From positions 189,485 through 253,484 of the forward strand of contig JAPLLX010000004.1 of the NCBI GenBank assembly GCA_026387335.1: a stretch of DNA of 64,000 bases, given 5' to 3'. Shown one piece after another: positions 18,001 through 35,574 of this stretch. Within the stretch, counting starts at the first letter, position 1; each line of letters starts with the position of its first letter. Under the pieces are notes generated by a model. The model was not told the DNA's origin, did no database searches, and saw nothing but the letters and a program-made list of their open reading frames with translations. A program made the position numbers and the translations under genes. The stretch comes from Candidatus Omnitrophota bacterium. Its GTDB lineage: Bacteria > Omnitrophota > Gorgyraeia > Gygaellales > Profunditerraquicolaceae.

Positions 18001-19551
18001 TGTCACATCCATACCACCATCTCTGTAACTACCAAACGCGTAATAATGCGTCTCCGTCTTTATATTACTAATATCGTCAGGCCCGTTTTCATCTATTAAT
18101 GTTGCTACTTCTCTCGGTGTTACTTCAGTCTTGGCTTGATGTCCCATATCGAAAACAGTGCCAGAGGCAGCACCCATTGCGATGCCAAACGCTTCATAAC
18201 CTATAACGTTCCCGGCGAGATTAGCAAACTGCCGGCCAACATAAGGATTATTCTTAAATAAACTGGTATCTTTCAGCGCCTCATAGGCAAATACGCTGGC
18301 GCCGGCTTTGGCAGCGCCTAAAAGTGTTCCTCTTAAGGCACCCATCCCAATTGTAGAAAGAGTACTGTTTGGCTGGTAATAAGCAGTGGTTGCTCCGGAT
18401 AAGGCGGCGATTGTCACAGTACTTAATATTCCGGCGGAAGTAGGATCCATCCCGAAGTTCTGCACTGCTACGTTAGTCGCTGCCTGGGCAATTTGGCTAT
18501 AGAGCATTGCCTGGCCAAAAGAAGTAACTCCTTTACTTAATGCCTCGCCAGCACTAAGAGCAGATGCTGTTCCGGCTACTGAGAAATAGGAGTAGGCGGC
18601 TGGTATGGCGACAGAAGCAACCGTAATCCCTAACCCCAGCCACATATCCCCGTCAGAAGGTTCTTTAAATAAAGCAGAGACATCGGCATAGCCTTGCTTG
18701 TTGGATCTGGCGCCTAAGACTTGTTTGGCTTCGGCATCAGTCAAAGGGACAGTCCCCTGCGGGGACAGTCCCTGTATTAAGGCATAACCGGAAAAATCTT
18801 TAAGGAATTTCTCTATTGGCAGGAATTCTTCTTTATGTTCATCTAAGAAGTAAATTTTTTCACCGCTAATTTTAGTGATTAAAACATAGTGGTCGCCGTT
18901 TAGGTGAGCAATGAAAGGAGTTAAATCTGCGGATAACTCGGATAACTTAACCGGGTAAAGTTTAAGGCCGAAAAACTCTGAAGCTTTGGATAAGGCGTAA
19001 AGGGAATTTTTAATAACTTTGGGATTACCTTCCGGCTTGACTACGTCATTTAAGATATCTATGGTTAAGGCAAAAACCGCGATATCCTGCTCTTCTACCT
19101 TAACCCCTTTATAGCTTAAGTAGTCATAAAGCGACTTGGTACCGCATGGTTTACACACCAGCCAGTTAAACAACTCATCTATCCTCTGATTGGACATTTT
19201 CAGTGGTTTATCCAGGGTTATGGTCAGATTCTCTGAAACTTTTATAGCAGTTATGGGTTTATTGGCTATATCTTTGAGGATACTTTTTACTGCCTGAGGA
19301 ATGTTAAGATTTTGGACATTTTTAAGGTAATTTGGGGCAAATACGTTGTTGGAAGGAAGGCCAATAGCGGGTTTATTCCAGATTACGCGCCAGTCATATT
19401 CTACTGCCTGAGCTGCCTGTTCAGGCAAGAAGACTACGGCAACAACAAAAGCTGCCACGCGGATCCAAGGCTTAAAACTGGAGTGGAACTTTTCCTTGGC
19501 CGCTTCTTTGGTAACTGCCTTGTCTTCTATATTGGCTCTTGGCTTTATCAT
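1..19551 (-). CDS. Giant multi-domain membrane/surface protein, 5' part of the gene in window (start ATG about 19549-19551; ORF continues past position 1; at least 6,516 aa in window). Domains seen: N-terminal signal anchor + C39-like Cys peptidase, multi-TM Gly/Ala block, P-loop kinase-like domain, second papain-like segment, Gly-rich linker, LysM between TM helices, K/E-rich charged region, further TM helices
   Basis: Manual reverse-complement translation in the phase whose + triplets start at positions congruent to 1 mod 3. No TTA/CTA/TCA (minus-strand stops) were found across lines 1-1620 or in spot checks at 7.0, 9.7-10.2, 12.0, 15.0, 17.5 and 18.7-19.55 kb, while in-frame + strand TAA/TGA/TAG are frequent, the signature of antisense. 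The ORF track lists no minus ORF of 60 aa or more between 1505 and 19551, consistent with one ORF lacking an in-window stop. N-terminus reads MIKPRANIEDKAVTKEAAKEKFHSSFKPWIRVAAFVVAVVFLPEQAAQA... then ...NWLVCKPCGTKSLYDYLSYKGV...TPFIAHLNGDHYVLITKISGEKIYFLDE (C39-like Cys/His pattern). Confidence 0.85.
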   Translation of the reverse strand, partial: MIKPRANIEDKAVTKEAAKEKFHSSFKPWIRVAAFVVAVVFLPEQAAQAVEYDWRVIWNKPAIGLPSNNVFAPNYLKNVQNLNIPQAVKSILKDIANKPITAIKVSENLTITLDKPLKMSNQRIDELFNWLVCKPCGTKSLYDYLSYKGVKVEEQDIAVFALTIDILNDVVKPEGNPKVIKNSLYALSKASEFFGLKLYPVKLSELSADLTPFIAHLNGDHYVLITKISGEKIYFLDEHKEEFLPIEKFLKDFSGYALIQGLSPQGTVPLTDAEAKQVLGARSNKQGYADVSALFKEPSDGDMWLGLGITVASVAIPAAYSYFSVAGTASALSAGEALSKGVTSFGQAMLYSQIAQAATNVAVQNFGMDPTSAGILSTVTIAALSGATTAYYQPNSTLSTIGMGALRGTLLGAAKAGASVFAYEALKDTSLFKNNPYVGRQFANLAGNVIGYEAFGIAMGAASGTVFDMGHQAKTEVTPREVATLIDENGPDDISNIKTETHYYAFGSYRDGGMDVTKNISGNIIQEGGKSSAYVAPSTAYQGALYALQDMKGSLISQGVGLAVEYAASQGVFGSELKKHPNYSRLLGEPLGGIAGANANKLTWDQAAFNGLLSGGVSAGLNALGGDFDKVTDKNKWGLTRLQMEGVNWLGTATLYSAAGTIIAANKSTAELGEKSWAGYAGRLFNKRFEEFATNYVSLGGTSPVYTKGAGGWSEIQYIEKIAQLAGTSDFKANADYLMKQKGYTDWGKFIDDGNLSSLLPSASYSLVNYAKSTLHFASVNNLVGLGRDIIYPTFFPTVIKAKESGITSTINIKMVPAVLWGDTGLYQYFNEKDIVEYVSGYRSEFNGNPLSNKYDSQANKDFIKKNISISSNIDESVSLKLLLPETSAYNTNANSKPRDQAGNKKLSEDSYPAADYLDRAKKFKTSLQNSGPAAGVEATETEKWLTWVVKNAGSPFLDYAKSLYGPGSGVVVNVESASAEVNKMTGTVGVLVHNKDGQLSLDPNSLNYAKGAQWKVPEFAIRGKDNIKGQAYYADKYTGVRFDSSTYLGHRKEQSGEITIGDGNFYGDGAFIKEIINPGDTKKFEKIKDVNGVENDLTLRQLDYLYTFDVLGKQTFDAKLSYARGEYEQRYRQEIMSSKPADNFLESKLGGESLMTPVPKQDVLSALFDNKSIVAKTKGTIYDLGEFGGNPVLLVNGDLIIPTPKAGGEGKESPQTDMVALTRAGSFQDSNKIPMTTARGFGGWVANIDHQNGNIVGLDLSSLNFAKGAKWSGENGFEMVRDNSKGDNTPIAEGDRNTRLVTSYSVHKDGSITFNSLGIRPGGDKENKGILTIGVNDSTLSETYLKEKITERLYFNPELIKKIDKDFETGKTVLIEAAEKGEFTDAKGGKIKDSRLQAKLIGEIKNINSAEKLKEFLSNGVSYIISSWAAYRIGNEIPDEVIFGNAVQKGHSLDWEVARQTGKDTSEVVLKGNSPLVGQLAFKGTDAATSKEFNIRPIQHWGGPAPLVFSGAVNPSLSRGLENSASLYEKNGPLEGWKLQESTKDGVKESYLINDNDKEKKVKVTVAKDQAGKDIISVPWDDSKNELRVQNNSESLPKLSRDFTYEIDHERYQQNPTGPVYFSKSGILTGMDFDKEDKFKFDLVTEAQGIKYSGARTSKSYEINKDKTVETYEGVYKLVQDQKTKKYNLIDPASKVVIYDNVDVSKGRVIVAGLDFPDGMSLLRNVAINLGPDGKISHVNLHWIGANYNQKEAEISFKANGEIEGVGQLTETFLAKPYLKDSEPGSKIDTKNKDRIIINGVGSKAGVLHIVSSFANYAVQEKDKAGVWNWVTPKDKILFDSELQDRHQVIWALTNVKDGGKAGVGTSPIIGQELLVNKEDGIARPALLIKALPFMNEGMEGSTADKAFKDKVGILKEKGYLDKAAVIKGDKDPLYKTAVEKLQADLKVKTDGIWGQKTDAALNKDKYFVLGEKGETQVVKVKDRLGAVILPSEESSVPVMLGVGINGDVQYKVITQAEGLAYAAPKGFKMPWSLSTDEKKGVASITYLQSTKASGTIDFPNGQPSKNEMSQKNYSLKTSEEVYFTKEDGKEKFVTKKEMRENLEKPLKELEKSNETKKDEKIKGLLEKARKSLDKEDFNGTSKLLNSAIAIDAFLNFKARPQDDKVRIAFMQDLVNKGWATEDEIKSDIADLNSKTGLAEYMRTYSKKIGFYDISQLKGFNKAEAEKAGLTEEVYVKGKLNDEQKAVIKKAELLTRVDALNKTDKENTTSYSEYYQENAKKLGWNQWVDDYRSGKIATLPSNFAGFEKWVADIYQQHSDAQRSAVLQRITKIHNDTGDSRFDPGVNGEKLNTAINNLNKAIEGEEFKGKLSIAGISIPLEDTSEGKIKNYLKAGSSGYAAMIDILGAPLAYLIDKPNEWLGAEPNYWRNRLWEKADNLIKQRDQLLNGEIQASGGDLAKDALFWAMLGYPVGSLGRGVVATAKEIAPSLGSRLAARFGVESQAGKAAINLLANPYTISEVVTLVVPNVVSLCTTGEFLPRETNALLAIAGLATPVASKVLSSLIVEGATLASPFLAKVGYAMGTQAPLWGQINLTTAVIGNLVGLNETGTARALSFGEGLGIYGEGLRDGAAFGLALTGAGALVANGGIIKNTINNLSTALRINTESSIVRYGTSFALGAVSLPLLSTGLKTMSGEGYLLDNIQSSYTWVNVLTGGLIGLGIKGLPAATPAGLNLARAEYGAITGAGIKLTHDSLDAYRSGNNYTFGQAVASVFGGAAIGTLAASYLGTTKNIFSPTSRAGYMAERDFSLQALYSVPTKLFNSSVRGALTWLYVSPSFTVSGALWRGALVNMEHAIDGKPSVPWFAIEKRDASNNIVKGEYVDLFSSKQGQTELLSSFVYGPRSGVWMAPAIGILQTRASEKLSISENAALSIQKPFSNETLNHAWSLGVFMPGVVTGLKESVNYFGNTGKYSLASLSNLIDGNGLTPKDRAVFSTPESEFIQWAGFFRVPAAAPVMSKNERSIFGGITEMLTKRGRATIISPEEAKSNVRPDWMKPGASERIIPVDKAAEVTATGKIDSLIVGQVAYAKEGSKVFYRDGFLGRRVNSFEVTPEIKRAAETRIKSDYYNVAADPVINIYGGVKDKDQANMLEKMVLGARYVAGSVKPLVLSIFAPPSAGKSTAGIIAELGLIQNGTYGPKAKMLVVVEQSDTHADQVYDKTMGDVRRAAEKGNAFAKSIVDADRIVRWRVKDSDQPAINFADKSAVIVSEHDLQYLMGLREMPREQLSAHDKALTELLDKAVLTNTDYLDNPSLQISDGFDKISKEEFDSQKALVERAHKFLTETLNGELSLKSLDDKYEITRSRDKDGETIVDPAGNDALIEAFLRYSAGEKLEQERLDLDALRKTPEGERLVAALKASMVARAEVTGLDKLTAFDAERNKWVIIPLNPSGRAHDLRVANSLQAIADVVIHNARVRDTSRPENVEIPLNYEQVEIQGAGHAMVSFAKMLDTAEKMGAVATVLFAGAMTDRQKDTMRIVFGMDSVGEVSKPILDANLNVVGVNNVNNNAIFELGSKETSNKGKDVTIYVDTQKSEQHGDSQLSIGDFSAFYKDNTRFILDQRGIWQMVEVGRELKDAKPVSEVIKNSGRNNSPIEYVTEQIASGKGVKVLISRPNTYGIDINGVSDKAVLVAIADSKSELLPIFQGSRRLRPVSGSDFDSVDRVLIVRDLSGVDVKSLEGVKELEKLFGKNQDQADKQDLLHKERDLIRDAKFKINLLLGSLLGPKAMEKIAQVNRLEQGNDSVRQLQNVRGQADLTVEHLDTERDHGMKFLRDQWGQGDLRELYPEKPKTAQEMKAKAIVDEFILFRDAYSKIEKALRAELKNEYEGKPAYKQLTPEQVRAIFAKEFTGKDYPKFTSANMEYGVTVRGEKRGVPSAVPSEELGPVTFENFAKGQPALAEKFNNLPAETQALFVRGGYMVGRGGLNLAMQTVQLWDERERKEVNVFLNRIGLPELALPEADILITPEQSFDLAVNLAQRGYIDVSNPYRGVDSIVRVATLTSLAADKLAGTAFTPTEVERLQLGLDNPVEFLTRNLQKGNSSLESALIKFNAQRHSSIFKDKRTMGGLQQVAVAMGKTQSLIDLMPLVLPLGPTQVEAYRQLNLSGISSKVLGRLSIADYLFLNSDPLARGQLFATSTNAATRQAADLMNTFMQTQGVVKRDVLRRFVDNPQQEAQRLGLPPKEIENVAAAFRELLNSTSGKTVQYALVVETLKNKNLVNSKDIHTGLRKLGINPQFEYGLRFNDAENALVAQRTSQGQENVKFEDILINPQEHENAFFRLLGPDIASRLLGNGSSLFTRQQALEFINNIQSANPDDARLDNSLKILNGLTDDASLYLVFRALQPAQTFIAEQEFKAQGSTAVEKEMGSNWYGKDKGYEGVQVEIGPSGFLRGPDKTKNTSAQVYEPSVGEKNYTIKADSVDNFVITKDAQGKLSIRLNLAGHYNFGRGAHEAFHIAVKNIGSNPSNIVILSPNGRDIDAEATVTAQQNYANLLAEMGTLENRELSESDFSISELGVNEGLTRFLSMRALINSLNSAEDTERQNLLATESTTLGGFTGHANKVLKTEQTVDKVLNDITELFKKGELLGKIHSDVTEEKSLVDLKLNDLLEKMKKQMDTAAPVEEKAAVNDNTGGSSSISGPNAKVQILAGALSALTGARIVSSSIAETGAALEYIGKIVNRLFGAVARMLGGQKPDQTTSPLERRSPMPLPVAGTVVSGVGASSSVTRALTALDLSPASLLYAGKVIQFNTIATPNPVVGTGTGVAPPASSPTNSDSKFVGVKDIRAYKLGVIEANEFKSLAGSQSANKETSGSIRATSSPLNSGVFVSGIPTKTSSSPANNSTITDLEKAIKLLNRLLGQDYFRNNKDDRMMLEGLRQKDPTAYGTVLRAIQDRDFEKARSEMYGLIRSAVKGIMNVEDNIPHLKAVLMRWFNDSYFEDTTVNSITDEDITNRYVIGLSIIANYVKTAQLHPELQEGLSEEIIRELFNGIANGNIVAAVQKIVRKEIQELEENNERTHKKAKEELAGFFSKMQGVVKEEVRGLSTKVNDQGEEIVNLRKAIDDGDKSVLRAVEGIIQGFDGRLRIAEGKRGIQPADCLPGSFYTVDSVLAAEIEEAERKLGRGLLLNELNQIAKGRLQYYLLSPKIIESMDSNTLGNLNLIVVQSGHAFLVRGKYANGDLMVTEYNNKGEVTETRPVSIESVALYNGKIVSIIHWNNVSAVENYKKENNLDDKDIREIKKEEMDEVSGVIGYIQELNGSSGGGSAQGGTGTGAAAGNGGAAAGPKGTGKGKGGFGEGPEAANFNLTNGASEAYGIVDWLNIISEDRKRVSGLAPPTVILSSSSAVNIKNILSNISNAYLTAGIFLFVSLVLPIQSFAATAANNILTVGKGDTWGHIVLEYFGKSGMKLWGEKGRAIETWRQVKGANQSYSAMDHINAGQQIDVSKILTVPGVPPAPQAPKGEESILSKILDYFTTNPKMIWAIAIVAIIILGLIAVKIYLNHRAEKVRKAAEEAAKLATQQEAERKAAEERDRLAKETVTKKVTEDAKKTPEAADKANVEGIKDEKIVDEKGHVSAKDNAGVQAEVTAENKQDPVNATASKDLFSTANDLLILGNSEYDAEEYFKALATYQKVEGILIKYSLEVKDQLTNAVISEESKAALIKQALELNNKLYEIEVKIAGCSSKITSEATNFANQINPGKANGGSSPVRELPVSANIPIETVTVSSSPINKLVTTSFLGTLRNILEKGRSYFRLEASITAQPKETGVGVTNLSLAPPLARIAASVSNFLIQMYRVIIGGGKNGKPNVEISGRNEKDRIRVFEGRISRSSLKSYSNELRGQGHYRTETPSLRLLEARFVKPVSNHAKGYNGLSPPCAALIAILLNSAVVISLLLVLSFTNSDINNLINLTRPLAFSVAGELAAYVVVNGGAGALLQGLTPLVAAITTIIEGGVPCVLSMLMILGLITLLTSPRTTLLLPQLVRTPAVISGSSSLTMLWELSTRATAVPIVGRRSSALRASSSVSRLAMQGDVFPSTKSTARTTKNRDGSVREPSLTVGSSPVFSSPIKKSSKTYWLKIVTVVALLVISAFTAIYHIHGRHERIQPTIEALRKADPAIFTKEDKVFKDFKSLVKYLMEIARVNRNLELGADYCYLGKDGWHLKIGAIGEEDGVVIKNIPGSILLHFHTSNGELSLEDLYSTLNRQSIIVSPDEVLVFKDEHKEKHNKFRGIFERAGNQAEALRRGKKVSEEKYLGKFMDLLKEHTSEEDHNGIYQDIFVQAGGEYLETIENIRVALGLKIIKFTWTSSSPAASSSVNVTYNSQGRLVKYASGEAITETIDGIEVITITKQASEVLAETARIKKNLEEFDFLGITKLSAEARKAEASKALGLEPDASKKTIKTMYRGLARLFHSDTSPVKVDGIYIQTLNSIKETLEESSSSSANKALDMAILNIIE

Positions 19552-19715
19552 TTTATTTTTATATTACTATATACATAAAATGCAAAATAAAAGTTCCCCT
19601 TTACCCCATTACTCTTTTTAGCTTGCGAGTGAGAGTCTTTCATATTTTGTTTTATAAAGCGTTTGTAAAATCCCTTACTAAGCTTCTAAAAAGAAAAACC
19701 GAACTGTCAAATTTC

Positions 19716-19825
19716 CGTCGGTAATTCGGCAGCCCGGCTATCCTTTGATAGGCACTATTTTTGTTTCTTTGGGACCCGCGGCTTTGCGCCCCCGGATTTC
19801 TCCGGGTTTGCCATTTCGTTACTTA
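19716..19825 (-). ncRNA. c-di-GMP-I (GEMM-I) riboswitch aptamer in the 5' leader of the giant gene
   Basis: Minus-strand sequence ...AAAUGGCAAACC-CGGA-GAAA-UCCG-GGGGCGCAAAGCC-GCGGGUCCC...GGAUAGCCGGGCUGCCGAAUUACCGACGG matches the hallmark GEMM-I elements as I recall them from V. cholerae Vc2: GGCAAACC, a P1b hairpin with GAAA tetraloop, GGGACGCAAAGCC, and the 3' ...GUUACCGAUGG closing segment. A U-rich tract (UUUUUCUUUUU, + coords about 19690-19705) follows as a possible expression platform. Confidence 0.7.
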
Positions 19826-19841: not shown

Positions 19842-19869
19842 AGTATAACACATAGCTCGTCGCTGTCAA
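19842..19869 (-). promoter_or_regulatory. Sigma70-type promoter for the giant gene and riboswitch (-35 TTGACA, 16-nt spacer, -10 TATACT)
   Basis: Minus-strand read: TTGACAgcgacgagctatgtgtTATACT. + strand tgtcaa at 19864-19869 and agtata at 19842-19847. Predicted TSS about 19834, immediately upstream of the riboswitch. Confidence 0.55.
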
Positions 19870-22613: not shown

Positions 22614-23480
22614 TTAAAACCCCTGGAACATCTTACCTTGGGTAAACTGCAGGAATATGGGCCCGCCGATAATAATGCCTATGACCGGCAGGATACAAAA
22701 AATCAAAGGAAGGAGAATTTTAATTGGAGCTTTCATGGCAAAACGCTCGCCGCGGTGAAAACGCTGCAGACGGGCATCTTCAGAAAGCGTCGCAAAAGCT
22801 TCGGCAACCGGGGTCCCCATGCGTTCAGCCTGAACCAAAGTCTGGATAAAAGAGTTCACTTCCTGAATATTTAGCCTTTTGGCCATATCTTTTAAGGCCT
22901 GGGTGCGGGATTTTCCCCACTGGATTTCTTCCAAAACAAAGGCCAACTCTTGGATCATCGGGTTAGTCGAAACTCCCTTTTTAATTAACCATTCTATTGC
23001 CGCGACAAAATCTAGCCCTGCGTCCACGCACAAACTCAATAAATCTATTGTTTCGGGAAGCACCCTGGCAATAGCATATTTACGCTGGCCTATTCTTTTG
23101 TTCAGCCATATTTCCGGCAGCAGATACCCTAAGACAAGCGCTACAACAAATCCTATTGGCCCAATCTTGCCCAAGACAAAAGGGACAAGCATAACTAACG
23201 CCGCGGTAAACAATAATTTGAAATTGATAAACTCCGTCGGAGAAAGCCTTAAATGGGCGGCAGTCAATCTCAATTTAATCTTTGCATCTAAGTTTAATTT
23301 ATCCAGAATAACCGCGGTAAAAGGAATGACGCCGGCCAGAAAACTGGTCTTAAAGCTTTTGCTCCTGGTTGTTTCCGGGGTAAAAGCCGGCTTTGCCCCG
23401 CCTACCCGAGGCATAGACCTTATCCCAATCACTATAAGTACAACCGCAGCCACTAAAAATAAGAAAATCAAAAAAAGCAT
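22614..23480 (-). CDS. tadC: Tad pilus inner-membrane platform protein TadC-like (T2SS F domain)
   Basis: 288 aa, 3 TM regions, GspF-type domain (…LPETIDLLSLCVDAGLDFVAAIEW…TLVQAERMGTPVAEAF…). Confidence 0.75.
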   Translation of the reverse strand: MLFLIFLFLVAAVVLIVIGIRSMPRVGGAKPAFTPETTRSKSFKTSFLAGVIPFTAVILDKLNLDAKIKLRLTAAHLRLSPTEFINFKLLFTAALVMLVPFVLGKIGPIGFVVALVLGYLLPEIWLNKRIGQRKYAIARVLPETIDLLSLCVDAGLDFVAAIEWLIKKGVSTNPMIQELAFVLEEIQWGKSRTQALKDMAKRLNIQEVNSFIQTLVQAERMGTPVAEAFATLSEDARLQRFHRGERFAMKAPIKILLPLIFCILPVIGIIIGGPIFLQFTQGKMFQGF

Positions 23481-23490
23481 CTATTCTCCT

Positions 23491-24366
23491 TTAGACATCT
23501 ATTTTGCTGAATTTATAGATTAAAAATATCCCCACTGCCTGCAAACAAACTGCTGTTATTAAGAGTGTCCGGCCTAACTCCGAGTTAAACATAATATCAA
23601 AGTGATTACGGTTAAAACTTAAAACCCAGGCCACAAAGATAAACGGCAAAGCCGACATAATTATCCCCTGAAGTTTGCCCTGGAGAGTAAGGGTTTTAAT
23701 GCTTTCCTTTAATTTCCGGTTGTCCCGCAGGGTAATGGATAGATGGGCTAAAACCTTGGTTAAATCTCCGCCGGTCTCTTTAGACACAAGAATGGAATTA
23801 ATGATTAAATCCAACTCTTCCAGGTGCATCCTATCATGTAAATGCTTAAGGCTCTCTTCCAGAGGAACTCCGATTTTATTTTCTCTTAAGACCAACCCGA
23901 ATTCCTGAGAAAAAGGCGCCGGGACCTCTTCTACTACTACTTCAAGAGCCTGCATTAAAGAAAGCCCTCCTTTGAGCGAAGAAGAAAGGACCATTATCCC
24001 GTCAGGAAGCTGGTTTTGAAAACGCAAGCGGCGTTGGTTTTTTAAATTCTTGATAATTATTGAAGGAATGATAAAACTGACTAGTCCGGCAAGCAGGGAT
24101 AAACCTAAATTTCTTAAGAAAAAAAATGCCAACATACCGATAACCAGAGGCGTAACTGTATACCACAAGACCAATTTCTGGCGGTTGACCTCAATAAACA
24201 TTTTATCCAGCTGCTTCTCTGCTTCCGCTACCTTTTGAGTATGCAAGATGCTAGCCCGCTGCAGAAATGCAGGAAGAAGCTGGCTGCCGATTAATACCAT
24301 TGCGGCGGCGATTAATCCTAAAATAATCAATAGTTGCATAAACAAATCTCCAGGGACGGTTCTCAA
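23491..24366 (-). CDS. tadB: Tad pilus platform protein TadB-like (T2SS F domain); the true start is probably the ATG at about 24339 (MQLLIILG...)
   Basis: GspF-type domain (…GIMVLSSSLKGGLSLMQALEVV…KETGGDLTKVLAHLS…). The track start is a TTG inside an upstream hairpin. Confidence 0.75.
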   Translation of the reverse strand: MRTVPGDLFMQLLIILGLIAAAMVLIGSQLLPAFLQRASILHTQKVAEAEKQLDKMFIEVNRQKLVLWYTVTPLVIGMLAFFFLRNLGLSLLAGLVSFIIPSIIIKNLKNQRRLRFQNQLPDGIMVLSSSLKGGLSLMQALEVVVEEVPAPFSQEFGLVLRENKIGVPLEESLKHLHDRMHLEELDLIINSILVSKETGGDLTKVLAHLSITLRDNRKLKESIKTLTLQGKLQGIIMSALPFIFVAWVLSFNRNHFDIMFNSELGRTLLITAVCLQAVGIFLIYKFSKIDV

Positions 24367-24420
24367 GTTAATCTTAAAGTGTCCCCTAATTAAGGGACAC
24401 TTTTGCTTTGAGTTGAGAAC
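24352..24420 (-). terminator. Nested stem-loop immediately downstream of an flp pilin gene and upstream of tadB; candidate attenuator/terminator
   Basis: Outer inverted repeat agggacggttctcaa / ttgagaaccgtccct with inner inverted repeat aaagtgtccc-ctaattaa-gggacacttt. Confidence 0.5.
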
Positions 24421-24425
24421 CGTCC

Positions 24426-24587
24426 CTATTTACTGTATTGCCGGCCAAAACCAAAATTATCCCCGGCATCCCGCCATTTTCCGCTTAAAGAGCGCTGGAA
24501 ATAAAGCGCCATTCCGATTAATGCCGCTATGACTATCGCTATTAGAAGCGCATATTCCAGGGATAGAAAACCAGTTTTTTTATTCAT
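24426..24587 (-). CDS. flp: Flp-type pilin (53 aa), MNKKTGFLSLEYALLIAIVIAALIGMALYFQRSLSGKWRDAGDNFGFGRQYSK
   Basis: Unlisted (under 60 aa). G/FLSLEY processing motif with E+5/Y+6, then a hydrophobic helix. ATGAATAA overlap with the stop of the upstream gene. Confidence 0.7.
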   Translation of the reverse strand: MNKKTGFLSLEYALLIAIVIAALIGMALYFQRSLSGKWRDAGDNFGFGRQYSK

Positions 24588-25155
24588 TATTCAAAGCGTC
24601 ATTGCGACTACGAGGTGAAACTGAAACAGGAAGTAATTTTGCTTTTAAGGTGATTGCTTCGCCGGACTTCGTCCTTCTCGCAATGACATCTGGATAACTA
24701 CCTTTCCATTGCAAGGAGGTCAATCTCTTTTTTCCCGAGTCTGAGAGGGTAAATAATAAAGTTTTATTGTGGCCTTGATAATCCGCGGCGACAATTGTCT
24801 GGTTATCAACCTTATTGTAAATACGCCAATTAACAAATGCTCTAAATTTCCCTCCTGCTCCTTGAAAACCCCGGGAAAAACTCTGAATAAATGCCTTTTT
24901 ATAACCTACCCTTTGTTTCTCGCCGGTAGACTGTTGATATTCCCGGCTGACATCTACCTGTAAGGCATTGAGGTTTTCCCAATCAATATATTTCTGGACC
25001 CCATAACGGCCATTCACTAAGTCGCTAAAGATAGCCCGGCATAGGTTGACATCCCCGGTTTTTAGCTGGAAGATAAACAAAAGGAAAACAATGATAATTC
25101 CGGCCAGAATTGTGTATTCTAAAATCGGGGTATCTTTTTTGTCTTTATTTATCAC
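24580..25155 (-). CDS. TadE-like pseudopilin/pilus assembly protein
   Basis: N-terminal ...TPILEYTILAGIIIVFLLFIF (TadE-like N-terminal segment), 191 aa. Confidence 0.6.
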   Translation of the reverse strand: MINKDKKDTPILEYTILAGIIIVFLLFIFQLKTGDVNLCRAIFSDLVNGRYGVQKYIDWENLNALQVDVSREYQQSTGEKQRVGYKKAFIQSFSRGFQGAGGKFRAFVNWRIYNKVDNQTIVAADYQGHNKTLLFTLSDSGKKRLTSLQWKGSYPDVIARRTKSGEAITLKAKLLPVSVSPRSRNDALNNE

Positions 25156-27356
25156 TGTGTTAATCCCACTGTATCGTAACTATAATAGGCCTTGCTCTTT
25201 TTAGTAATTATACCACTAAAGAAGGGATTCCACATCCCTAAACTTACTCTTCCGGATTTTAGCTCTTTGTCTTTAGGCTCCTGCTTGGTTATCTGTACCC
25301 AACAATTACCATCATCAGTATAATCTACCATGCGTATACAAATTGTCTTTGACCATCTGCCTCCGCTTTCCGTTTTAATCGTCCTGGCTAACTGGTAAGG
25401 GCCGACTCCGACTTTTATACTGTGGTCGCCCCGGCTATCCGTCCAACTGTAAGTTGCCGGGTTCAGGCCGCCGTAACCGCTTTCTAGCGCGCTATAAGCA
25501 TTCTCCATATCCTTAACGTATTGTTTAATCGCATCCTGAAAACCGCTAATCTTGCTAATCAAACTATCAATGTCATTTAAAGCAGGGGTAACTTCATCAT
25601 CTATATTATAATCCAAGCTGCCTCCCTGAAGAGTAAAGTTCAATTTACAGGGTAGGGGGCTGATTTCCGGCCCGGAACTGACAATACAATCGTTGGCGCA
25701 GTAAGTGCTGTTGCAGGGCTGGCACGTTGGACTTTCATCTCCTATAGAGCCAAAAGTTCCTACTTTGCAGGAAGGGAGCTGGTTTCTTTTTGCTATAATT
25801 TCCGTTTTCCAATCTGAAAGGTACCCCTTTACTTCTCCTAAAGTATAATAATAATCCGTAATTGTATTGCCATCTTCGGTTTTCTTCCCGGTATCTTGAT
25901 TATAGAAAATCTTGATGTAAGTCTGCCACTGGGCGGTTAACTGGTTAATATCTATTTTTTCTATTGCTTCGCTGTCGGCGATAAAGCTTTTAAACCCGCT
26001 GACTATAGCGTCAAAAGAGCCGTCATTTTTAGGATTCCAGAAATCCGGGTTTAAGGCCCGGGCTATTCTGGCAATGGAGCCGTCCTGTGTAATATCCTTT
26101 GTGTCCCCTAACTTGGAAAGCGGACCTTGGATTTCAGTTTGAATATAATCCTCAGAATCTTTTAGGGTTCCGTTAAAAAAGGAACTGGTGATACTCTGTA
26201 AAGTAGGAATAACGCTTTTTAAATATTTCATCCGGCCGTTCCAATAATATAGAAAATGCGATACCTTGTCATCAATTTTGCCATCCCCGCTTAAATCATC
26301 GAAATCTATATCTTTGTTCGGGTCATCCACGGTCTGGGAAAAAACCTGCAATAATATGCTCTCCCGAAAATGGTCATAATCCGGCAAACCGTTTAACATC
26401 CGGACTGCCGCGGAAAAAGCTGCGGCCTGATTCTGCTCAGCAACGTAGGCATTGTAAAGATTTGAACTAGCAGATAATGTCATAGCGGCTGCTGCGCTAA
26501 GACTTGGAGCTATAGCAACACCTCCTGCTATTACGGTTGAACCTGTAGGTATGGCTGTACCTGCAGCCACTGTAGTTATCGGTACATTAGCAGGAACGAT
26601 CGTTACTCCCGCAGCTGTATAACTAGTCCCTGCTTCTAGAGTTAACTGACTATTCGCTGCCATAGTTATTTCCGATCCTCCCACAACTTCTGCTCCTCCA
26701 TTTACTGCTACTACACCTCCTTCGGAACCAGCTACTATAGTTTCCCCTCCTTCAGCTACCAGTGTTCCTTCCGCTACCTCTGTTAATTCTGCACCTTCGA
26801 GAACAATTGCACCGTCCTCCGCGGCCACCGCCGTACCAAAAGAACCATATGCAGCTCCAATTGCTGCGCCAATCATAAAACCAGTAATGGCTCCTGTTGC
26901 AATATTCCCTCCTGTTGCAGCAGCGCCAACAGCGCCTCCAACAAGACCTCCAGCAGCGCCTATAGCGGTGAACGCTGCTAATAAACCTGCAGCGGACCAA
27001 CCTACAGGATTCCAACACATAGCTACGGCAACTACAGCTAAGACTGCTCCGACAATAGCGCCTATAATACCGCCAAACCCCCCAGCGCCGCTTTGGCACT
27101 TGCAAGTAGTATTGCCTAATGATTTGTATAAACCATAAGAACGGGTGGCTAATTGCGAGGCTAAAGAAAGGCTGGCAGAATCCGCGACATTAGAAAGATT
27201 AGTGCTGGAAAGAGAAAGCTGGCCTAAATTTACCGTAGTTAAGATCATAATCAGGATAACCACAATCATTAAAATAAGCAGGGTGGAGATCTGGCCTTGG
27301 GGCTTGTCGTCTTTTAAGTTACCGAGAGAAAATTTTTTATAAAAACTATTGAGCAT
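25152..27356 (-). CDS. Large TadG-like pilus-associated protein with N-terminal TM anchor, long Gly/Ala-rich repeat region and Cys-rich C-terminal region
   Basis: 734 aa. N-terminal ...ISTLLILMIVVILIMILTTVNLGQ. The 26400-27100 region is G/A-rich low-complexity. C-terminal ...CKVGTFGSIGDESPTCQPCNSTYCANDC. Confidence 0.55.
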   Translation of the reverse strand: MLNSFYKKFSLGNLKDDKPQGQISTLLILMIVVILIMILTTVNLGQLSLSSTNLSNVADSASLSLASQLATRSYGLYKSLGNTTCKCQSGAGGFGGIIGAIVGAVLAVVAVAMCWNPVGWSAAGLLAAFTAIGAAGGLVGGAVGAAATGGNIATGAITGFMIGAAIGAAYGSFGTAVAAEDGAIVLEGAELTEVAEGTLVAEGGETIVAGSEGGVVAVNGGAEVVGGSEITMAANSQLTLEAGTSYTAAGVTIVPANVPITTVAAGTAIPTGSTVIAGGVAIAPSLSAAAAMTLSASSNLYNAYVAEQNQAAAFSAAVRMLNGLPDYDHFRESILLQVFSQTVDDPNKDIDFDDLSGDGKIDDKVSHFLYYWNGRMKYLKSVIPTLQSITSSFFNGTLKDSEDYIQTEIQGPLSKLGDTKDITQDGSIARIARALNPDFWNPKNDGSFDAIVSGFKSFIADSEAIEKIDINQLTAQWQTYIKIFYNQDTGKKTEDGNTITDYYYTLGEVKGYLSDWKTEIIAKRNQLPSCKVGTFGSIGDESPTCQPCNSTYCANDCIVSSGPEISPLPCKLNFTLQGGSLDYNIDDEVTPALNDIDSLISKISGFQDAIKQYVKDMENAYSALESGYGGLNPATYSWTDSRGDHSIKVGVGPYQLARTIKTESGGRWSKTICIRMVDYTDDGNCWVQITKQEPKDKELKSGRVSLGMWNPFFSGIITKKSKAYYSYDTVGLTQ

Positions 27357-27370
27357 TATTTATCCCTTAT

Positions 27371-27754
27371 TTATTGCCCGAAAATATTTAATTTCGGATA
27401 TTTGCTTTGGTCAGACTCATCTACCTGGACTTCGCTTCCGCTATTTCCGGCATTCACCCTTTGGGCTTCGTAGTCCTTTTGCCTTTGCACCAGGCTTCTA
27501 TTCATCCAGAGAAATAACTGCAATGCCCCGAATAATAAGATAAAAACCACTACTAAACTGGCAGCTAATTCCAAAGAGACTTGCGCAGCTTTACCACCCA
27601 GAGTTGCGGGAATCAACTTTTTCCTGCGAAACTTCACTAACAACCTCCTCAGTATTGGTAGCGGCGCTGGTTGAACCATAAGGCTTAGTAATAATTTTTC
27701 TTTTGGTCTGCGTCTTCCAGTCAATATTATCCGTCGTGGTAATGCCTGACGCAT
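27371..27754 (-). CDS. Short TadE-like protein; the true start probably lies internal at about 27610 (the track ORF overlaps the upstream gene)
   Basis: ...AAQVSLELAASLVVVFILLFGALQLFLW. The N-terminal 50 aa of the track ORF overlaps 27591..28619 in another frame. Confidence 0.45.
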   Translation of the reverse strand: MRQALPRRIILTGRRRPKEKLLLSLMVQPAPLPILRRLLVKFRRKKLIPATLGGKAAQVSLELAASLVVVFILLFGALQLFLWMNRSLVQRQKDYEAQRVNAGNSGSEVQVDESDQSKYPKLNIFGQ

Positions 27755-28619
27755 CTTCGGTCTTTCTTAAGGTATTATCGGTTAAGGTCTTCTGTTCATA
27801 ATCCTGCTGTAACCCCATAGCTTTTAAGCCGCCAAAACTAAAGAGCTGCTCTAATGCCGGGAAATTATATGTGTGGTTTACGCTATCTGTTTCCTGATAA
27901 TTGGCGCAATACCAGGGAATGTTCATTGGTTGAGCGCAGGCGCTGCAGCTTGCTGAAGGGTCCCGGCTGCATTCTTTTACGCAGGCATCCGAATCCACAA
28001 TCATCCGGCACTGTTTAACCGCGCTGCCATAATCTACGATTTCTCCGGCGCAGGAATCAATGATACGGATATTTTTACTAGGTTGGGAGCAGATGGTGTC
28101 TTCCGGTTCTCCGGTATTAGGATTAATTGACGTATTCTCTTCTCCTAAACACTCTCCGTCACCTGTATTCCAGACATTTCCGCCGCCGTAGATCACTTGA
28201 TACCTGCCTAAGCTGCCTTCCGGGACATTAGTTTCATCCCTAAACCCGGCAGTGGTATAGGTAAATTCCTTGCCGTTGATATTTACCGTTACCCGGGGTA
28301 ATTCGCTCTCCGTATCAGCGGTTTCGCCTAATCTATAGTCGCGGGCAATGCCTCCGGCTGAGCCGGTCATCGGAGTAACCGAACCTACGCCAAAAGTATC
28401 GGAAGGATTAGGGATATGTTTATCGCTGATTACTATATTAGAAATAGAGGTGCCCGGCTGGTTTACTGCGTGGGTTAAAGACTTCCTAAATGCCTGCTGC
28501 ATCATTTTCTGCTGGTAATTATACCTTAAGCCGTAACTAATAAGAACACCTAAAAGCATAATGATTATTGCCCCAAAAATCGCTACTTCTAATAAAGATT
28601 CTCCCTCTTTTTTCATCAT
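27591..28619 (-). CDS. TadE/TadF-like pseudopilin (342 aa)
   Basis: MMKKEGESLLEVAIFGAIIIMLLGVLISYG... N-terminal pilin-like segment followed by a Cys-containing globular domain. Confidence 0.55.
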   Translation of the reverse strand: MMKKEGESLLEVAIFGAIIIMLLGVLISYGLRYNYQQKMMQQAFRKSLTHAVNQPGTSISNIVISDKHIPNPSDTFGVGSVTPMTGSAGGIARDYRLGETADTESELPRVTVNINGKEFTYTTAGFRDETNVPEGSLGRYQVIYGGGNVWNTGDGECLGEENTSINPNTGEPEDTICSQPSKNIRIIDSCAGEIVDYGSAVKQCRMIVDSDACVKECSRDPSASCSACAQPMNIPWYCANYQETDSVNHTYNFPALEQLFSFGGLKAMGLQQDYEQKTLTDNTLRKTEDASGITTTDNIDWKTQTKRKIITKPYGSTSAATNTEEVVSEVSQEKVDSRNSGW

Positions 28620-28927
28620 TCCTCCGGCGAGATATGCTCGGTTCCGGAACGGTGCTCTTCCTGAGAATTAATATCAGTAGTTGTTGTAGTTTTATATCTA
28701 TCGTCCACCTCAACAGTATTAGTCTGCGTAGTTATATCGCTTTTCTGCGTAATGGTAATATCTGAAACCGTATTTTTAGGTTCATAATGCTGCGCGCTTA
28801 ACTCATCCGCGCCCTGGCGCAACCTTCCCTGAAGGCCCCGGCGGATATAAACCTGCATTGCCAATAACGCGGCAATAATAGCAAATATGACTATGGCGTA
28901 TTCCAGGACACTTTGGGCTTTGCGCAT
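28616..28927 (-). CDS. Flp-type pilin paralog with Thr-rich C-terminal extension
   Basis: MRKAQSVLEYAIVIFAIIAALLAM...TTTTDINSQ. Confidence 0.65.
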   Translation of the reverse strand: MRKAQSVLEYAIVIFAIIAALLAMQVYIRRGLQGRLRQGADELSAQHYEPKNTVSDITITQKSDITTQTNTVEVDDRYKTTTTTDINSQEEHRSGTEHISPEE

Positions 28928-28928
28928 T

Positions 28929-29255
28929 TTATTTCTCCCGGGTGGAAACTGAAGCCGAGCTTCCGCTGCCTGTAGTAACCGCGCTGAAATCGCTACTCTG
29001 GCCGCCGCCCTTTTCTATTCTCTTCCTCTGGGTTATCTCTGACTGCCGGCTCACCGCCGAAGAGGTCTTAATCCCTTTAAGCGGGTCTATTTCTTCAGCA
29101 TCTTTTTGGTTGCCTGCTTCATCTGCTGCTATCTTGACCACGGATTGTATCCCCCGGCGAAAATACATGGCCATACCTGCTAAAGCCAGGGCTACCAAAC
29201 CCAATACTATGGCATATTCTAAAATACTCTGGGCTTTGCGCATTTTAATCCGCAT
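28929..29255 (-). CDS. Flp-type pilin paralog
   Basis: MRKAQSILEYAIVLGLVALALAGMAMYF... Confidence 0.65.
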   Translation of the reverse strand: MRIKMRKAQSILEYAIVLGLVALALAGMAMYFRRGIQSVVKIAADEAGNQKDAEEIDPLKGIKTSSAVSRQSEITQRKRIEKGGGQSSDFSAVTTGSGSSASVSTREK

Positions 29256-29592
29256 CCGGCGCTGAGCCGGTCTTTTCCCATCCGCTACGGGTAGTTGTCT
29301 GGTCTATGGATGTATCCGGAAAGCCTGTAGCAGAGGACCCGCTTTTAACCTCAATAGTATCTGACTCCCGGTAATAAGGATCATATTGTTGTTTGATCTT
29401 CGTAAAATTAGGAACACCTTTATCTATAGCAGTATTTTTTATCTCGGAGATCAAATAATCTGCGCCCCCTTTATATCTAGCCTGGAGGCTGCGTTGGATA
29501 TAGATACGCACGGTCATAATTATCGCTACTACCGCAGCCAAACACAAAGCAACTTCCGTTAAACTCTGCCCCCGAGTTTTTACTCTGCGCAT
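29245..29592 (-). CDS. Flp-type pilin paralog
   Basis: ...RGQSLTEVALCLAAVVAIIMTV... Confidence 0.55.
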   Translation of the reverse strand: MRRVKTRGQSLTEVALCLAAVVAIIMTVRIYIQRSLQARYKGGADYLISEIKNTAIDKGVPNFTKIKQQYDPYYRESDTIEVKSGSSATGFPDTSIDQTTTRSGWEKTGSAPDAD

Positions 29593-29598
29593 TTTTTA

Positions 29599-29910
29599 CT
29601 ATTTCGCTTCAGTATTCCAGGTTTCGTTTTCTGACCTGGTCACTGTTTCCCCTTGGGATACCTGGCTGGTAGTGCTTCCGGTAGAGGTATCTCGTGTCTC
29701 AGTAGTTACAGTAGTGCCGCCACCCACTGTCGTACGGGTAGAATTAAAATTTGAAGCATCAAACTGCTTGCCGATCTGGTCGCTAGACTCCCTTAGCCTT
29801 CCCTGGACCCCTCTTTTCATATAAGCATTTATTGCCAATAAGGCGCCGATTACTGCCGCGATAACCAAGGCGTATTCCAAGGTGCTTTGGGCTCTTTTTC
29901 CCCTAAACAT
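29599..29910 (-). CDS. Flp-type pilin paralog with Thr/Ser/Gly-rich C-terminal region
   Basis: MFRGKRAQSTLEYALVIAAVIGALLAINAY...GGGTTVTTETRDTSTGSTTSQ. Confidence 0.65.
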   Translation of the reverse strand: MFRGKRAQSTLEYALVIAAVIGALLAINAYMKRGVQGRLRESSDQIGKQFDASNFNSTRTTVGGGTTVTTETRDTSTGSTTSQVSQGETVTRSENETWNTEAK

Positions 29911-29934
29911 TGTTCACCCCCTGCTCGCTAAATT

Positions 29935-30321
29935 TTATTTACTTGGGCTTATGTCCTCTTCCGCGCCGGTGATCTGCTGGGTGCCGGTGCGCTTAATGGT
30001 TGCGCCGCTGACTTCTTTTTTACCGCCGGTGCTGGAAGCTGTTTCTGTTTCTGTCCCTTCGCTGGACTCAGTATTAAATTGATATTCGCCTTTTCTGATA
30101 TAGTATGGCTCATATTGTTTTTCCGTGCCGAATAAAGTCGCGGTTTTAGCTTCGGCCTCTGTTCCCTGCAAGGCTACAGTAGCCGCATTGTCTGAGCCGG
30201 ACTTTATCTTAGCCTGCATGGACCTGCGCATATAAATCTGCATGGCGCTGAAAACACCGATAACCACCGCGATTAAAAGCGCGTATTCCATAGTACTCTG
30301 GGCTCTTTTCCCCCTTAACAT
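29935..30321 (-). CDS. Flp-type pilin paralog
   Basis: MLRGKRAQSTMEYALLIAVVIGVFSAMQIYMRR... Confidence 0.65.
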   Translation of the reverse strand: MLRGKRAQSTMEYALLIAVVIGVFSAMQIYMRRSMQAKIKSGSDNAATVALQGTEAEAKTATLFGTEKQYEPYYIRKGEYQFNTESSEGTETETASSTGGKKEVSGATIKRTGTQQITGAEEDISPSK

Positions 30322-30343
30322 CTTTCACCTCCCTTAAAAACTA

Positions 30344-30580
30344 TCACTTCGCTTGGGTAAAATTACTGCTGGCGTCGGTGATCTTGGTCGCCGAAGAATC
30401 CATCACCTTTTCTACCGCCGGTTTTAATTTAGCGTAAGCGAAAACAATGATTGCCCCGACAATAGCCGCAAATACCGCGATATATTCTAATGTGCTTTGG
30501 GCCTTATTTCTCCGCGACATCTTTCTACCTCCTTGATTATTTATTGGTAACAACCGGTTGAGCATTGATCTGGTCTTCAA
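30344..30580 (-). CDS. Flp-type pilin paralog; the true start is probably the internal M (MSRRNKAQSTLEY...) at about 30520, which follows a GGAGG
   Basis: ...NKAQSTLEYIAVFAAIVGAIIVFAY... The track ORF overlaps the next pilin gene. Confidence 0.6.
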   Translation of the reverse strand: MKTRSMLNRLLPINNQGGRKMSRRNKAQSTLEYIAVFAAIVGAIIVFAYAKLKPAVEKVMDSSATKITDASSNFTQAK

Positions 30581-30695
30581 TTATTTTAAGGTTGGCCTGG
30601 GCCGAGCGCTGCACATAGATGCTCATCGCCGCCAGTGCCGCCACCACTACGGAAATAATCAATGCGTATTCTAAAATACTCTGCGCCTTTTTCAT
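30537..30695 (-). CDS. flp: Flp-type pilin (52 aa), MKKAQSILEYALIISVVVAALAAMSIYVQRSAQANLKIIEDQINAQPVVTNK; candidate major pilin
   Basis: Unlisted small ORF found by manual translation. Canonical short Flp architecture. Confidence 0.7.
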   Translation of the reverse strand: MKKAQSILEYALIISVVVAALAAMSIYVQRSAQANLKIIEDQINAQPVVTNK

Positions 30696-30711
30696 CTCTA
30701 TACCTTCTCGC

Positions 30712-30885
30712 TTATTTAGTTATCTGCGTCGCTGCTTTCTGGAAAAGGCCTTCTTTTTCACTTGAGCCCTGGATCGCCTCTTTAACCTTAGGCAAAAAAG
30801 TGCTGAAAGATAAAATCGTTAAACACGCTATTATGGCGAATAAAATGAAGTATTCTACCGCAGCCTGCCCCGTAGCCATACGCAT
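30712..30885 (-). CDS. flp: Flp-type pilin (57 aa), MRMATGQAAVEYFILFAIIACLTILSFSTFLPKVKEAIQGSSEKEGLFQKAATQITK
   Basis: Unlisted. G/QAAVEY motif. RBS ggaggtatcaggATG, partly within a cctgata/tatcagg hairpin. Confidence 0.6.
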   Translation of the reverse strand: MRMATGQAAVEYFILFAIIACLTILSFSTFLPKVKEAIQGSSEKEGLFQKAATQITK

Positions 30886-31002
30886 CCTGATACCTCCATA
30901 TCAGGGTTAACCCCTGCCGTCATTATTTAAGCGTTATATTTAAATAATATCACCTTGCCCAACAAGCGTCAAGACTATTAAAACCTGCACGGAAAACGCT
31001 TT

Positions 31003-32883: not shown

Positions 32884-32888
32884 ACAAC

Positions 32889-32945
32889 CCCCAGATTGGA
32901 CATTTCCCTATACGAATAATATAGTTTATGAACCAGATTATGTCA
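32889..32945 (-). promoter_or_regulatory. Sigma70-like promoter (TTGACA-17-TATATT) for the 31003..32883 gene, with a TGGACA motif copy between -10 and the RBS
   Basis: Minus-strand read: TTGACAtaatctggttcataaacTATATTattcgtatagggaaatgtccaatctgggggttgtATG. Confidence 0.5.
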
Positions 32946-32950
32946 AGTTA

Positions 32951-32997
32951 AATAGGGACAGCGACCGTTTTTTAAACGGTCGCTGTCCCTATTAAAG
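32951..32997. repeat. Hairpin repeat family copy 1 (AATAGGGACAGCGACCGTTT-loop-AAACGGTCGCTGTCCCTATT); terminator-like, downstream of the DUF192 gene
   Basis: Perfect 20-bp stem seen in sequence. Copies 2 (33345-33410) and 3 (43186-43248) share the same stem sequence. Confidence 0.7.
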
Positions 32998-32998
32998 G

Positions 32999-33340: not shown

Positions 33341-33344
33341 TTTT

Positions 33345-33410
33345 ATTAGGGACAGCGACCATTTTTCCCAGTTAACCTTAGAAGAAAAATGGTCGCTGTC
33401 CCTATTTATC
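33345..33410. repeat. Hairpin repeat family copy 2 (TAGGGACAGCGACCATTTTT...AAAAATGGTCGCTGTCCCTATT, loop about 27 nt)
   Basis: Seen in sequence between the cpaEF stop and the DUF192 start. Its translation yields the DSDHF...EKWSLSLFI artefact ORFs. Confidence 0.7.
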
Positions 33411-35570: not shown

Positions 35571-35574
35571 TTTT

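Follow-up and report, generated by a model that had tools for sequence, protein, structure and literature searches.

Two preprints (West-Roberts et al. 2023, bioRxiv 10.1101/2023.11.21.568195; bioRxiv 10.64898/2026.06.07.730766) raise the questions of how the giant proteins of Omnitrophota, with lengths of tens of thousands of residues, are exported and of whether each acts as a single chain or in pieces. The same questions arise in a 64,000-nucleotide stretch of a Candidatus Omnitrophota genome (contig JAPLLX010000004.1, positions 189,485 to 253,484, hereafter the window), which holds the start of such a giant gene. An initial annotation of this stretch had placed a C39-like, double-glycine-type cysteine peptidase domain at the N-terminus of the encoded protein, directly after a single transmembrane signal-anchor helix, and had proposed self-processing or the processing of prey or host proteins at the membrane. 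We found that the domain belongs to peptidase family C39 and that a single, highly conserved motif with the signature of double-glycine leaders, the natural substrates of such enzymes, stands immediately behind it, at a position where the peptidase may cut its own chain.

A scan for open reading frames (ORFs) delineated one stop-free frame on the minus strand, from 19563 to 1, open at the window edge. The ATG at 19551 was taken as its start, the N-terminus that follows (MIKPR...) being common to the homologues, and residues are numbered from it, so that residue n starts at 19551-3(n-1); codon coordinates were checked in this numbering and are collected in Table 1. The range 18700-19260 given in the initial annotation corresponds to residues 98-284. 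The two peptides that it quoted were recovered on the minus strand, NWLVCKPCGTKSLYDYLSYKGV as residues 129-150 and LSADLTPFIAHLNGDHYVLITKISGEKIYFLDE as residues 206-238, but the quoted hydrophobic stretch WIRVAAFVVAVVFLPEQAAQA is residues 29-49 (19405-19467) and falls outside that range. From its N-terminus, the module consists of a signal-peptide-like segment, an extension, the C39 core, a linker and the leader-like motif, which ends just before R282; beyond R282 comes a poorly conserved stretch rich in Gly, Ala and Ser, and then at least 6,200 further residues. Fusion of the peptidase to a giant protein, near its N-terminus, was thus confirmed, although a conserved extension of about 75 residues separates it from the hydrophobic segment that it had been said to follow directly.

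Table 1. Features of the giant gene and of its surroundings in the window, with the residues of the giant protein that they encode.
Feature	Window positions	Strand	Residues	Basis or remark
Giant ORF, at least 6,517 residues	1..19551	minus		C39 module at N-terminus; C-terminus past the left edge of the window
Predicted Sec-type signal peptide, long and unusually conserved	19405..19551	minus	1-49	Kyte-Doolittle scan and conservation
N-terminal extension between signal peptide and C39 core	19177..19404	minus	50-125	Conserved in 53-homologue alignment; no Pfam match
C39 cysteine peptidase core	18766..19176	minus	126-262	
Codon of Cys136, predicted nucleophile (P-C-G motif)	19144..19146	minus	136	169/169 relatives; first residue of helix 136-147
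Codon of His221, predicted catalytic His	18889..18891	minus	221	169/169 relatives; aligns to ComA His96
Codon of Asp237, predicted third triad residue	18841..18843	minus	237	Aligns to ComA Asp112
Double-glycine-leader-like motif LTDAEAKQVLGA	18709..18744	minus	270-281	Conservation island; family scoring matrix
c-di-GMP-I-GGC riboswitch aptamer, 5' untranslated region of giant gene	19724..19821	minus		Rfam RF03167; about 170 nt before the ATG
Sigma-70-like promoter TTGACA-16-TATACT with TG extension	19842..19869	minus		11/12 consensus matches; pattern match only
Tad/type II secretion-like pilus-secretion locus, co-oriented, upstream of giant gene	22614..39038	minus		Pfam scans and ORF translations

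Relatives of the module were gathered by a word-indexed search (53 matches) and by an exhaustive profile search, which returned 686 proteins at E<=0.001 and 194 at E<=1e-30. Conservation was read from an alignment of 189 relatives made with hmmalign, each count being taken over the sequences that cover the position in question, and gene neighbourhoods were compared in 80 loci obtained by scanning one genome per species.

Assignment to family C39 was supported by both sequence and structure. The Pfam profile Peptidase_C39 (PF03412) matched with 35 bits against a gathering cut-off of 22 (E 1.5e-8), over profile positions 46-127 of 133, which correspond to residues 183-259 and cover the His/Asp half only, and a phmmer search of PDB sequences found the double-glycine protease LahT150 (6MPZ). 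An AlphaFold2 model of residues 50-300, built from 40 sequences, reached a mean predicted local distance difference test score (pLDDT) of 80.9 and a predicted template modelling score of 0.78, and showed the papain-like alpha+beta fold of this family; when the C39 model was compared with the PDB by Foldseek, all 20 best matches were C39 domains. Papain-like amidases of the NlpC/P60 or CHAP type were considered and rejected, such folds ranking far below the C39 domains. Consistently with the Cys...His...Asp arrangement claimed in the initial annotation, Cys136 and His221 were invariant in the 169 relatives that cover both positions, while position 237 was Asp in 118 of them, Glu in 24 and another residue (Y/S/N/Q) in 27. 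His221 and Asp237 were aligned with the catalytic His96 and Asp112 of ComA by hmmsearch as well as by hhalign. Cys136 opens the helix formed by residues 136-147 in the model, and a catalytic Cys as the first residue of the core helix is a hallmark of papain-like enzymes; it also pairs with ComA Cys17 through the pattern CG..SL.....Y.G, a match that is weak taken alone (p ~0.07); of the ComA query, residues 53-144 were confirmed against an alignment printout. The two checks proposed with the initial annotation, a Pfam search and a structural superposition, therefore both led to C39 peptidases, with the catalytic Cys and His present in the alignment.

Some observations weigh against an active enzyme. 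Profile methods (Pfam, hmmsearch and hhalign) align only the C-terminal half of the domain (residues 183-265), so the assignment of Cys136 draws on the structural model, its invariance and the weak local match to ComA. In ComA, the oxyanion-hole Gln lies 6 residues ahead of the catalytic Cys, whereas here this residue has no clear counterpart, position -6 being an invariant Trp130 and position -7 variable (N/E/Q/S/A). Asp237, moreover, is mostly conserved and not invariant. With these points taken into account, the N-terminal module of the giant protein is very probably an active C39-family (clan CA, papain-like) cysteine peptidase. A non-catalytic role, in which a C39-like domain (CLD) of the HlyB type would bind or chaperone the giant protein during export without cutting it, appears very improbable: in the HlyB CLD the catalytic Cys is missing and no cleavage takes place, and the invariance of both Cys136 and His221 would be hard to explain without catalysis. 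The first quoted peptide contains two cysteines, of which C136 is the conserved, predicted catalytic one and C133 is peculiar to this sequence. Here alone, C133-K-P-C136 (19144-19155, minus strand) forms a CXXC that includes the predicted nucleophile, position 133 being mostly Gly, also Asp or Lys, in the relatives; a redox-sensitive C133-C136 disulfide that masks the nucleophile is conceivable, and may be compared with the redox-dependent autoprocessing of StbD-CT described below.

If the peptidase is active, what does it cut? Behind the last core strand (F253-I259) and a linker of variable length (7-10 residues), an island of conservation was found 10 residues after the C39 domain, with column entropies of 0-1.9 bits at the motif positions against 3.3-3.8 bits on either flank. 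Here it reads L270-T-D-A-E274-A-K-Q-V278-L-G280-A281, followed by R282, and the proposed scissile bond, A281/R282, falls between bases 18709 and 18708 (a slash marks a proposed bond throughout). Numbered back from this bond, position -2 (G280) was Gly in all 159 relatives and position -4 was Ile or Val in all 156, position -12 was Leu, Val or Ile in 155 of 157, and position -1 was Ala, Ser or Gly in 136 of 156 (87%); Glu or Gln occupied position -8 in 119 and Ala or Ser position -7 in 124 of 157. Double-glycine leaders, the substrates of ComA, LctT and LahT, follow the pattern LSxxELxxIxGG, with an invariant Gly at -2, Gly, Ala or Ser at -1, hydrophobic residues at -4, -7 and -12 and Glu at -8. 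By its sequence, the amphipathic segment at residues 270-281 matches this pattern, except for the small residue at -7. A position-specific scoring matrix (PSSM) derived from the family gave 34.5 bits at the motif, while the next best site in the 6,517 residues reached 10.2 bits and shuffled sequences had a maximum of 17.9 (mean 6.8, 95th percentile 12.8); a strict regular expression for the motif likewise matched once in the 6,517 residues. The motif also persists in divergent relatives, as ...EAQAIRGA/Y in P0123 and ...MKEIKGA/D in P0170. These two proteins (3,237 and 2,535 residues) have 2-3 C39 copies each, at about residues 606-801, 1630-1790 and 1858-2003, and a clear ...[IV]xGA motif follows the first copy only.

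In the AlphaFold2 model, the motif forms a helix (residues 272-277) and an extended segment (279-280), and pLDDT for residues 270-279 was about 95, above much of the domain, which suggests that the segment packs on the domain. Against self-cleavage at this site stand several points. Such a pLDDT value points to packing somewhere on the domain and does not imply placement in the groove, and the motif could owe its conservation to structure alone or to a role as an autoinhibitory pseudo-substrate. At position -7 stands Ala or Ser instead of the large hydrophobic residue of classical leaders, and when the 26-mer around the site was compared with leader-peptide families, the sole match was to lacticin-481 (GA/K), at an insignificant E value of 0.13; membership of residues 255-300 in a known leader-peptide family was rejected on this same match. 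Covariation of the motif with positions 134/135, beside Cys136, and 216, close to His221 (mutual information with average product correction) was weak (z 3-4) and was dropped as evidence, being confounded by subfamily structure and phylogeny. On balance, self-cleavage at G280-A281/R282 is suggested by the sequence with a likelihood that we place near, and if anything slightly below, an even chance. The presence of this candidate site favours self-processing over the processing of prey proteins, the two options left side by side by the initial annotation.

Whether the enzyme might instead cut the giant protein at many internal sites, as a polyprotein, was weighed from the same scans, since this proposal has been published (passages of West-Roberts et al. 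2023, 10.1101/2023.11.21.568195). It would agree with the intact catalytic residues and with the 2-3 C39 copies of P0123 and P0170, as a polyprotein might need, and a weak second GA site, ...AAKQALGA/N, is conserved between two loci, L039 and L050. These internal matches score below zero with the family PSSM, however, and in the visible 6,517 residues the motif occurs once, the next site (10.2 bits) lying within the shuffle range; neither the regular expression nor the PSSM revealed further cleavage sites above that range in the visible giant protein. Because the motif is unique there, cutting into many pieces gets no support here, and we consider it unlikely, with the provisos that the specificity of the enzyme could be looser than the motif and that the C-terminal part of the protein lies outside the window scanned. 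Substrates in trans were sought as well: when all six frames of the window were searched for small ORFs that open with a double-glycine leader, none was found, and the only other match to the regular expression in that search was inside a TadA-like ATPase.

The first 49 residues bear on where cleavage would take place. A Kyte-Doolittle scan showed a basic n-region and a hydrophobic core of just 11 residues, V32-L42, bounded by Arg31 and Pro43-Glu44, after which comes A47-Q-A49/V50. Among 178 relatives, position -3 of this site was Ala or Ser in 169 and Ala, Ser, Val or Gly in 176, and position -1 was Ala in 174. Consistently with these features, the anatomy looks like that of a Sec signal peptide, cleavable and long in its n-region, and not like a 20-residue anchor, so that the single transmembrane signal-anchor of the initial annotation was not upheld. 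If the N-terminus is indeed exported by Sec, the C39 protease would be extracytoplasmic. The peptidase domains of peptidase-containing ATP-binding cassette transporters (PCATs) are, by contrast, cytoplasmic. A thiol protease outside the cytoplasm may be oxidised, a further point against activity and self-cleavage. A protease tethered by an uncleaved signal-anchor, with the C39 domain at the outer face of the inner membrane, would be compatible with the 21 residues of W29-A49, in which a 19-residue hydropathy window barely passes 1.6, and the unusual conservation of the segment could reflect a retained functional helix. Tethering nevertheless seems improbable in view of the short core between charged and Pro residues and of positions -3 and -1, which in 176-177 of the 178 relatives comply with the rule for signal peptidase I; West-Roberts et al. 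(10.1101/2023.11.21.568195), in the passages cited here, likewise describe signal peptides. The segment, with the pattern FKSSFKxWIRxxAFxxxxxFLPEQxAQA/VEYDWR, is among the most conserved parts of the giant protein, F26, W29, A34, F41, P43, Q45 and A49 being near-invariant. Such conservation is atypical for Sec signal peptides and recalls, by analogy, the extended signal peptides of other giant secreted proteins. A likeness of AQAVEY, at the mature N-terminus, to the Flp-pilin motif G/XXXXEY encoded by the small pilin genes nearby was rejected, as the hydrophobic stretch precedes the motif and the -1 residue misfits.

The module was compared with known C39 systems. With the peptidase domains of the bacteriocin-exporting PCATs, also called ABC transporter maturation and secretion (AMS) proteins (LahT150 6MPZ, PCAT1, ComA, LctT and CvaB; MEROPS C39), it shares the aligned Cys, His and Asp and a candidate substrate motif of double-glycine-leader pattern. 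Unlike in those proteins, no ABC_membrane or ABC_tran match was found by Pfam anywhere in the 6,517 residues; the domain is preceded by a signal-peptide-like segment and predicted to be extracytoplasmic; it has a 75-residue N-terminal extension, about 14 residues inserted behind the Cys helix and no evident oxyanion Gln; and the enzyme carries its putative substrate motif in cis, immediately on its C-terminal side. Scores against the PCAT equivalogs of NCBIfam were 15 bits where cut-offs are at least 500, and Pfam scans found no PCAT gene in the window.

A precedent for cleavage in cis is StbD-CT (bioRxiv 10.64898/2026.05.07.723447; PDB 8SSK/8SSM), the C39 toxin of a CdiA-like giant protein of Citrobacter rodentium, in which the C39 domain was shown experimentally to autoprocess after G157-G158/A159 in the adjoining linker, with a requirement for the catalytic Cys and for reducing conditions, and which targets GyrB and ParE at Gly-Gly sites. 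As in StbD, which is secreted, the C39 domain here sits inside a very large protein, but the StbD domain is C-terminal with its site on the domain's N-terminal side, whereas here the domain is N-terminal and the site C-terminal to it; StbD is also a polymorphic toxin with an immunity protein, and no immunity gene was seen here. These differences bear on a role as effector or toxin, in which the C39 domain, freed or still attached, would be delivered to prey or host and cleave Gly-Gly sites as StbD-CT does. Known C39 toxins are C-terminal and are accompanied by an entry domain and by an immunity gene next to their own, and in place of polymorphism the family here is highly conserved (55-80% identity across species); LahT, PCAT1 and ComA, moreover, score above StbD. 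A StbD-like toxin role after release is possible, and the N-terminal position, the conservation and the absence of an immunity gene argue against the polymorphic-toxin reading; we regard the effector role as decidedly unlikely.

Among viruses, the leader protease Lpro of foot-and-mouth disease virus and HC-Pro of potyviruses are papain-like leader proteases that release themselves at their own C-terminus, often at Gly-containing sites. The resemblance is one of functional analogy only, in that a papain-like protease stands near the N-terminus of a very long polypeptide, with self-cleavage proposed in the case of the Omnitrophota protein; no homology extends beyond the clan CA fold, and the viral enzymes are cytoplasmic.

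We propose the following sequence of events. Transcription would be gated by a cyclic-dinucleotide riboswitch in the 5' untranslated region; the N-terminus would be exported by Sec and the signal peptide removed after Ala49, leaving the protease extracytoplasmic; the leader-like helix would dock in the substrate groove of its own protease; and a cut after G280-A281, in cis or between neighbouring molecules, would free a peptidase of about 26 kDa (residues 50-281) and give the giant protein a new N-terminus at R282. A single chain would carry both enzyme and substrate motif, and the module would amount to an N-terminal 'leader protease'. We observe family membership and the conservation of the catalytic residues, the motif, the N-terminus and the genomic context; export, signal-peptide removal and self-cleavage are what we infer from the sequence; taken as a whole, this chain of export, signal-peptide removal and self-cleavage seems to us about equally balanced between right and wrong. 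That a self-excising cassette of this kind is conserved across Omnitrophota, with its gene switched by a c-di-GMP-I-GGC riboswitch, is a tentative reading, to which we give somewhat less than an even chance. Were it true, no processing site would have been defined in an Omnitrophota giant protein before this one, and the bacteriocin-leader protease system would here be used outside the cytoplasm and independently of a transporter; the freed C39 peptidase might be handled by the neighbouring Tad/type II secretion-like machine or act on prey.

Parts of this picture have precedents. According to passages of West-Roberts et al. (10.1101/2023.11.21.568195), Omnitrophota giant genes have an N-terminal C39 domain near signal peptides, and the giant protein itself or other substrates were proposed as its targets; in a passage of the second preprint (10.64898/2026.06.07.730766), a PF03412 group is listed as the largest of the clusters that 916 long Omnitrophota proteins form by Pfam architecture. 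The N-terminal C39 domain described here is a further example of this arrangement, and the idea of self-processing or substrate processing is not new. The searched passages of both preprints (10.1101/2023.11.21.568195; 10.64898/2026.06.07.730766) make no mention of a double-glycine motif, a leader or a cleavage site, and the newer part is one precise hypothesis, a single site with invariant Gly followed by Ala, Ser or Gly, placed behind the protease and bearing the double-glycine-leader signature. As far as those passages go, the gene resembles the 'Archaeovorin'-type giant genes in phylum, in a C39 domain near a predicted signal peptide and in its giant ORF, and it shares with Omnitrophota giant genes the upstream locus resembling Tad/type II secretion systems and the scarcity of Pfam matches beyond C39. 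Their reported divergent SecA-DEAD-like domain, in contrast, was not detected here by Pfam: residues 3100-3800 gave no Pfam match to SecA at E<=1 and no PDB sequence match. A Walker-A-like P-loop, APPSAGKST, was noted near residue 3170, the surrounding 700 residues having no Pfam or PDB sequence match.

The proteins closest to the module, at 78-80% identity, are annotated as Candidatus Omnitrophota, and all 80 loci come from Omnitrophota metagenome-assembled genomes, a few of which bear other automated labels. In 183 of 190 relatives the module begins no more than 100 residues into the protein, and its frame stays open to the end of the locus DNA in 74 of the 80 loci, with more than 3,200 residues after the domain in loci of 10 kb. 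A stand-alone C39 gene, as suggested by three short 'complete' proteins of 407-482 residues (P0004, P0010 and P0024), was rejected, these being split giant genes. In L001 (10001-21443 of ena:ERZ27250208:k141_217469), a C39 ORF of 480 residues is separated by one in-frame TAA from an ORF of 14,858 residues, and this TAA may stem from a sequencing error or a nonsense mutation, or may be read through; L002 and L003 are fragmented giant genes. Some genomes have two or three paralogous giant genes headed by C39, namely JBAZKC01 (L016 and L039), JAQUSM01 (L044, L054 and L079), CAIRWO01 (L024 and L032) and PCRK01 (L009 and L065), and L036 has two copies in one locus.

Ahead of the giant gene, the riboswitch aptamer scored 66.9 bits against the RF03167 gathering threshold of 59 (E 1.2e-13). 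RF03167 was also above its gathering threshold in all seven related loci tested, and among the 71 loci whose upstream DNA extends to 600 nt or more, nhmmer found the aptamer in 66, with a median distance of 151 nt to the start. A promoter-like site lies just upstream of the aptamer, and a CCGAA...UUCGG stem with a U-run follows it at about 19690-19724 on the minus strand. The word 'riboswitch' is absent from the West-Roberts preprint (10.1101/2023.11.21.568195), a passage of which reports PilZ genes downstream of giant genes. The conserved riboswitch offers a way to approach the timing of expression of such costly genes.

The AlphaFold2 model of the extension comprised a helix (84-95), strands (102-112) and a second helix (121-131), with low confidence at residues 59-79. 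Many transmembrane segments form part of the published description of such giant genes (West-Roberts et al. 2023). Elsewhere in the giant protein studied here, semi-hydrophobic blocks rich in Gly and Ala occupy residues 300-680 and 2400-2800, and clear hydrophobic helices occur at residues 5425-6158. Two Pfam matches stayed below threshold: a weak PG_binding_1 match at residues 1916-1963 (13660-13810, minus strand; E 0.013), and a DnaJ J-domain at about residues 6450-6500 (3-200, minus strand), with E 0.001 and 19 bits against 27.8. Over about 1150-2400 (minus strand; residues ~5720-6130), GC skew deviated, at about 0 to +0.04 where other parts of the gene show -0.1 to -0.3; an antisense ORF of 148 residues lies there at 1151-1597 on the plus strand, and the translation of the giant frame is odd, being rich in Ser, Pro and Leu, with 'SSSP'-like motifs that recur and a number of helices that are strongly hydrophobic.

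The upstream Tad-like locus comprises two TadB/C-like T2SSF genes, a TadE/G-like gene, a TadZ-TadA-like ATPase, a secretin, RcpC, a Rotamase_2 peptidyl-prolyl isomerase and a number of small Flp-like proteins that bear class III signal peptides. A passage of West-Roberts et al. 2023 (10.1101/2023.11.21.568195) lists GspE/F-like genes, a secretin, RcpC, a Rotamase_2 peptidyl-prolyl isomerase and small genes with class III signal peptides upstream of Omnitrophota giant genes, all of which were matched here, and the same T2SSF pair precedes the C39 gene in L001 and L003. At least eight of the small Flp/TadE-like genes lie at 27371-30885 (minus strand), with class III signal peptides such as MRKAQSVLEYAIV..., MKKAQSILEYALI... 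and ...GQAAVEYFILF.... An OprB porin gene stands upstream of the giant gene on the same strand, and the remainder of the window is ordinary chromosome. A Fic/DOC and an HTH_17 (helix-turn-helix) gene (21836-22536, minus strand) are inserted with the Tad genes on one side and the porin and giant genes on the other; their place is taken at the equivalent spot in L001 and L003 by a Y1 transposase, which suggests a variable insertion spot.

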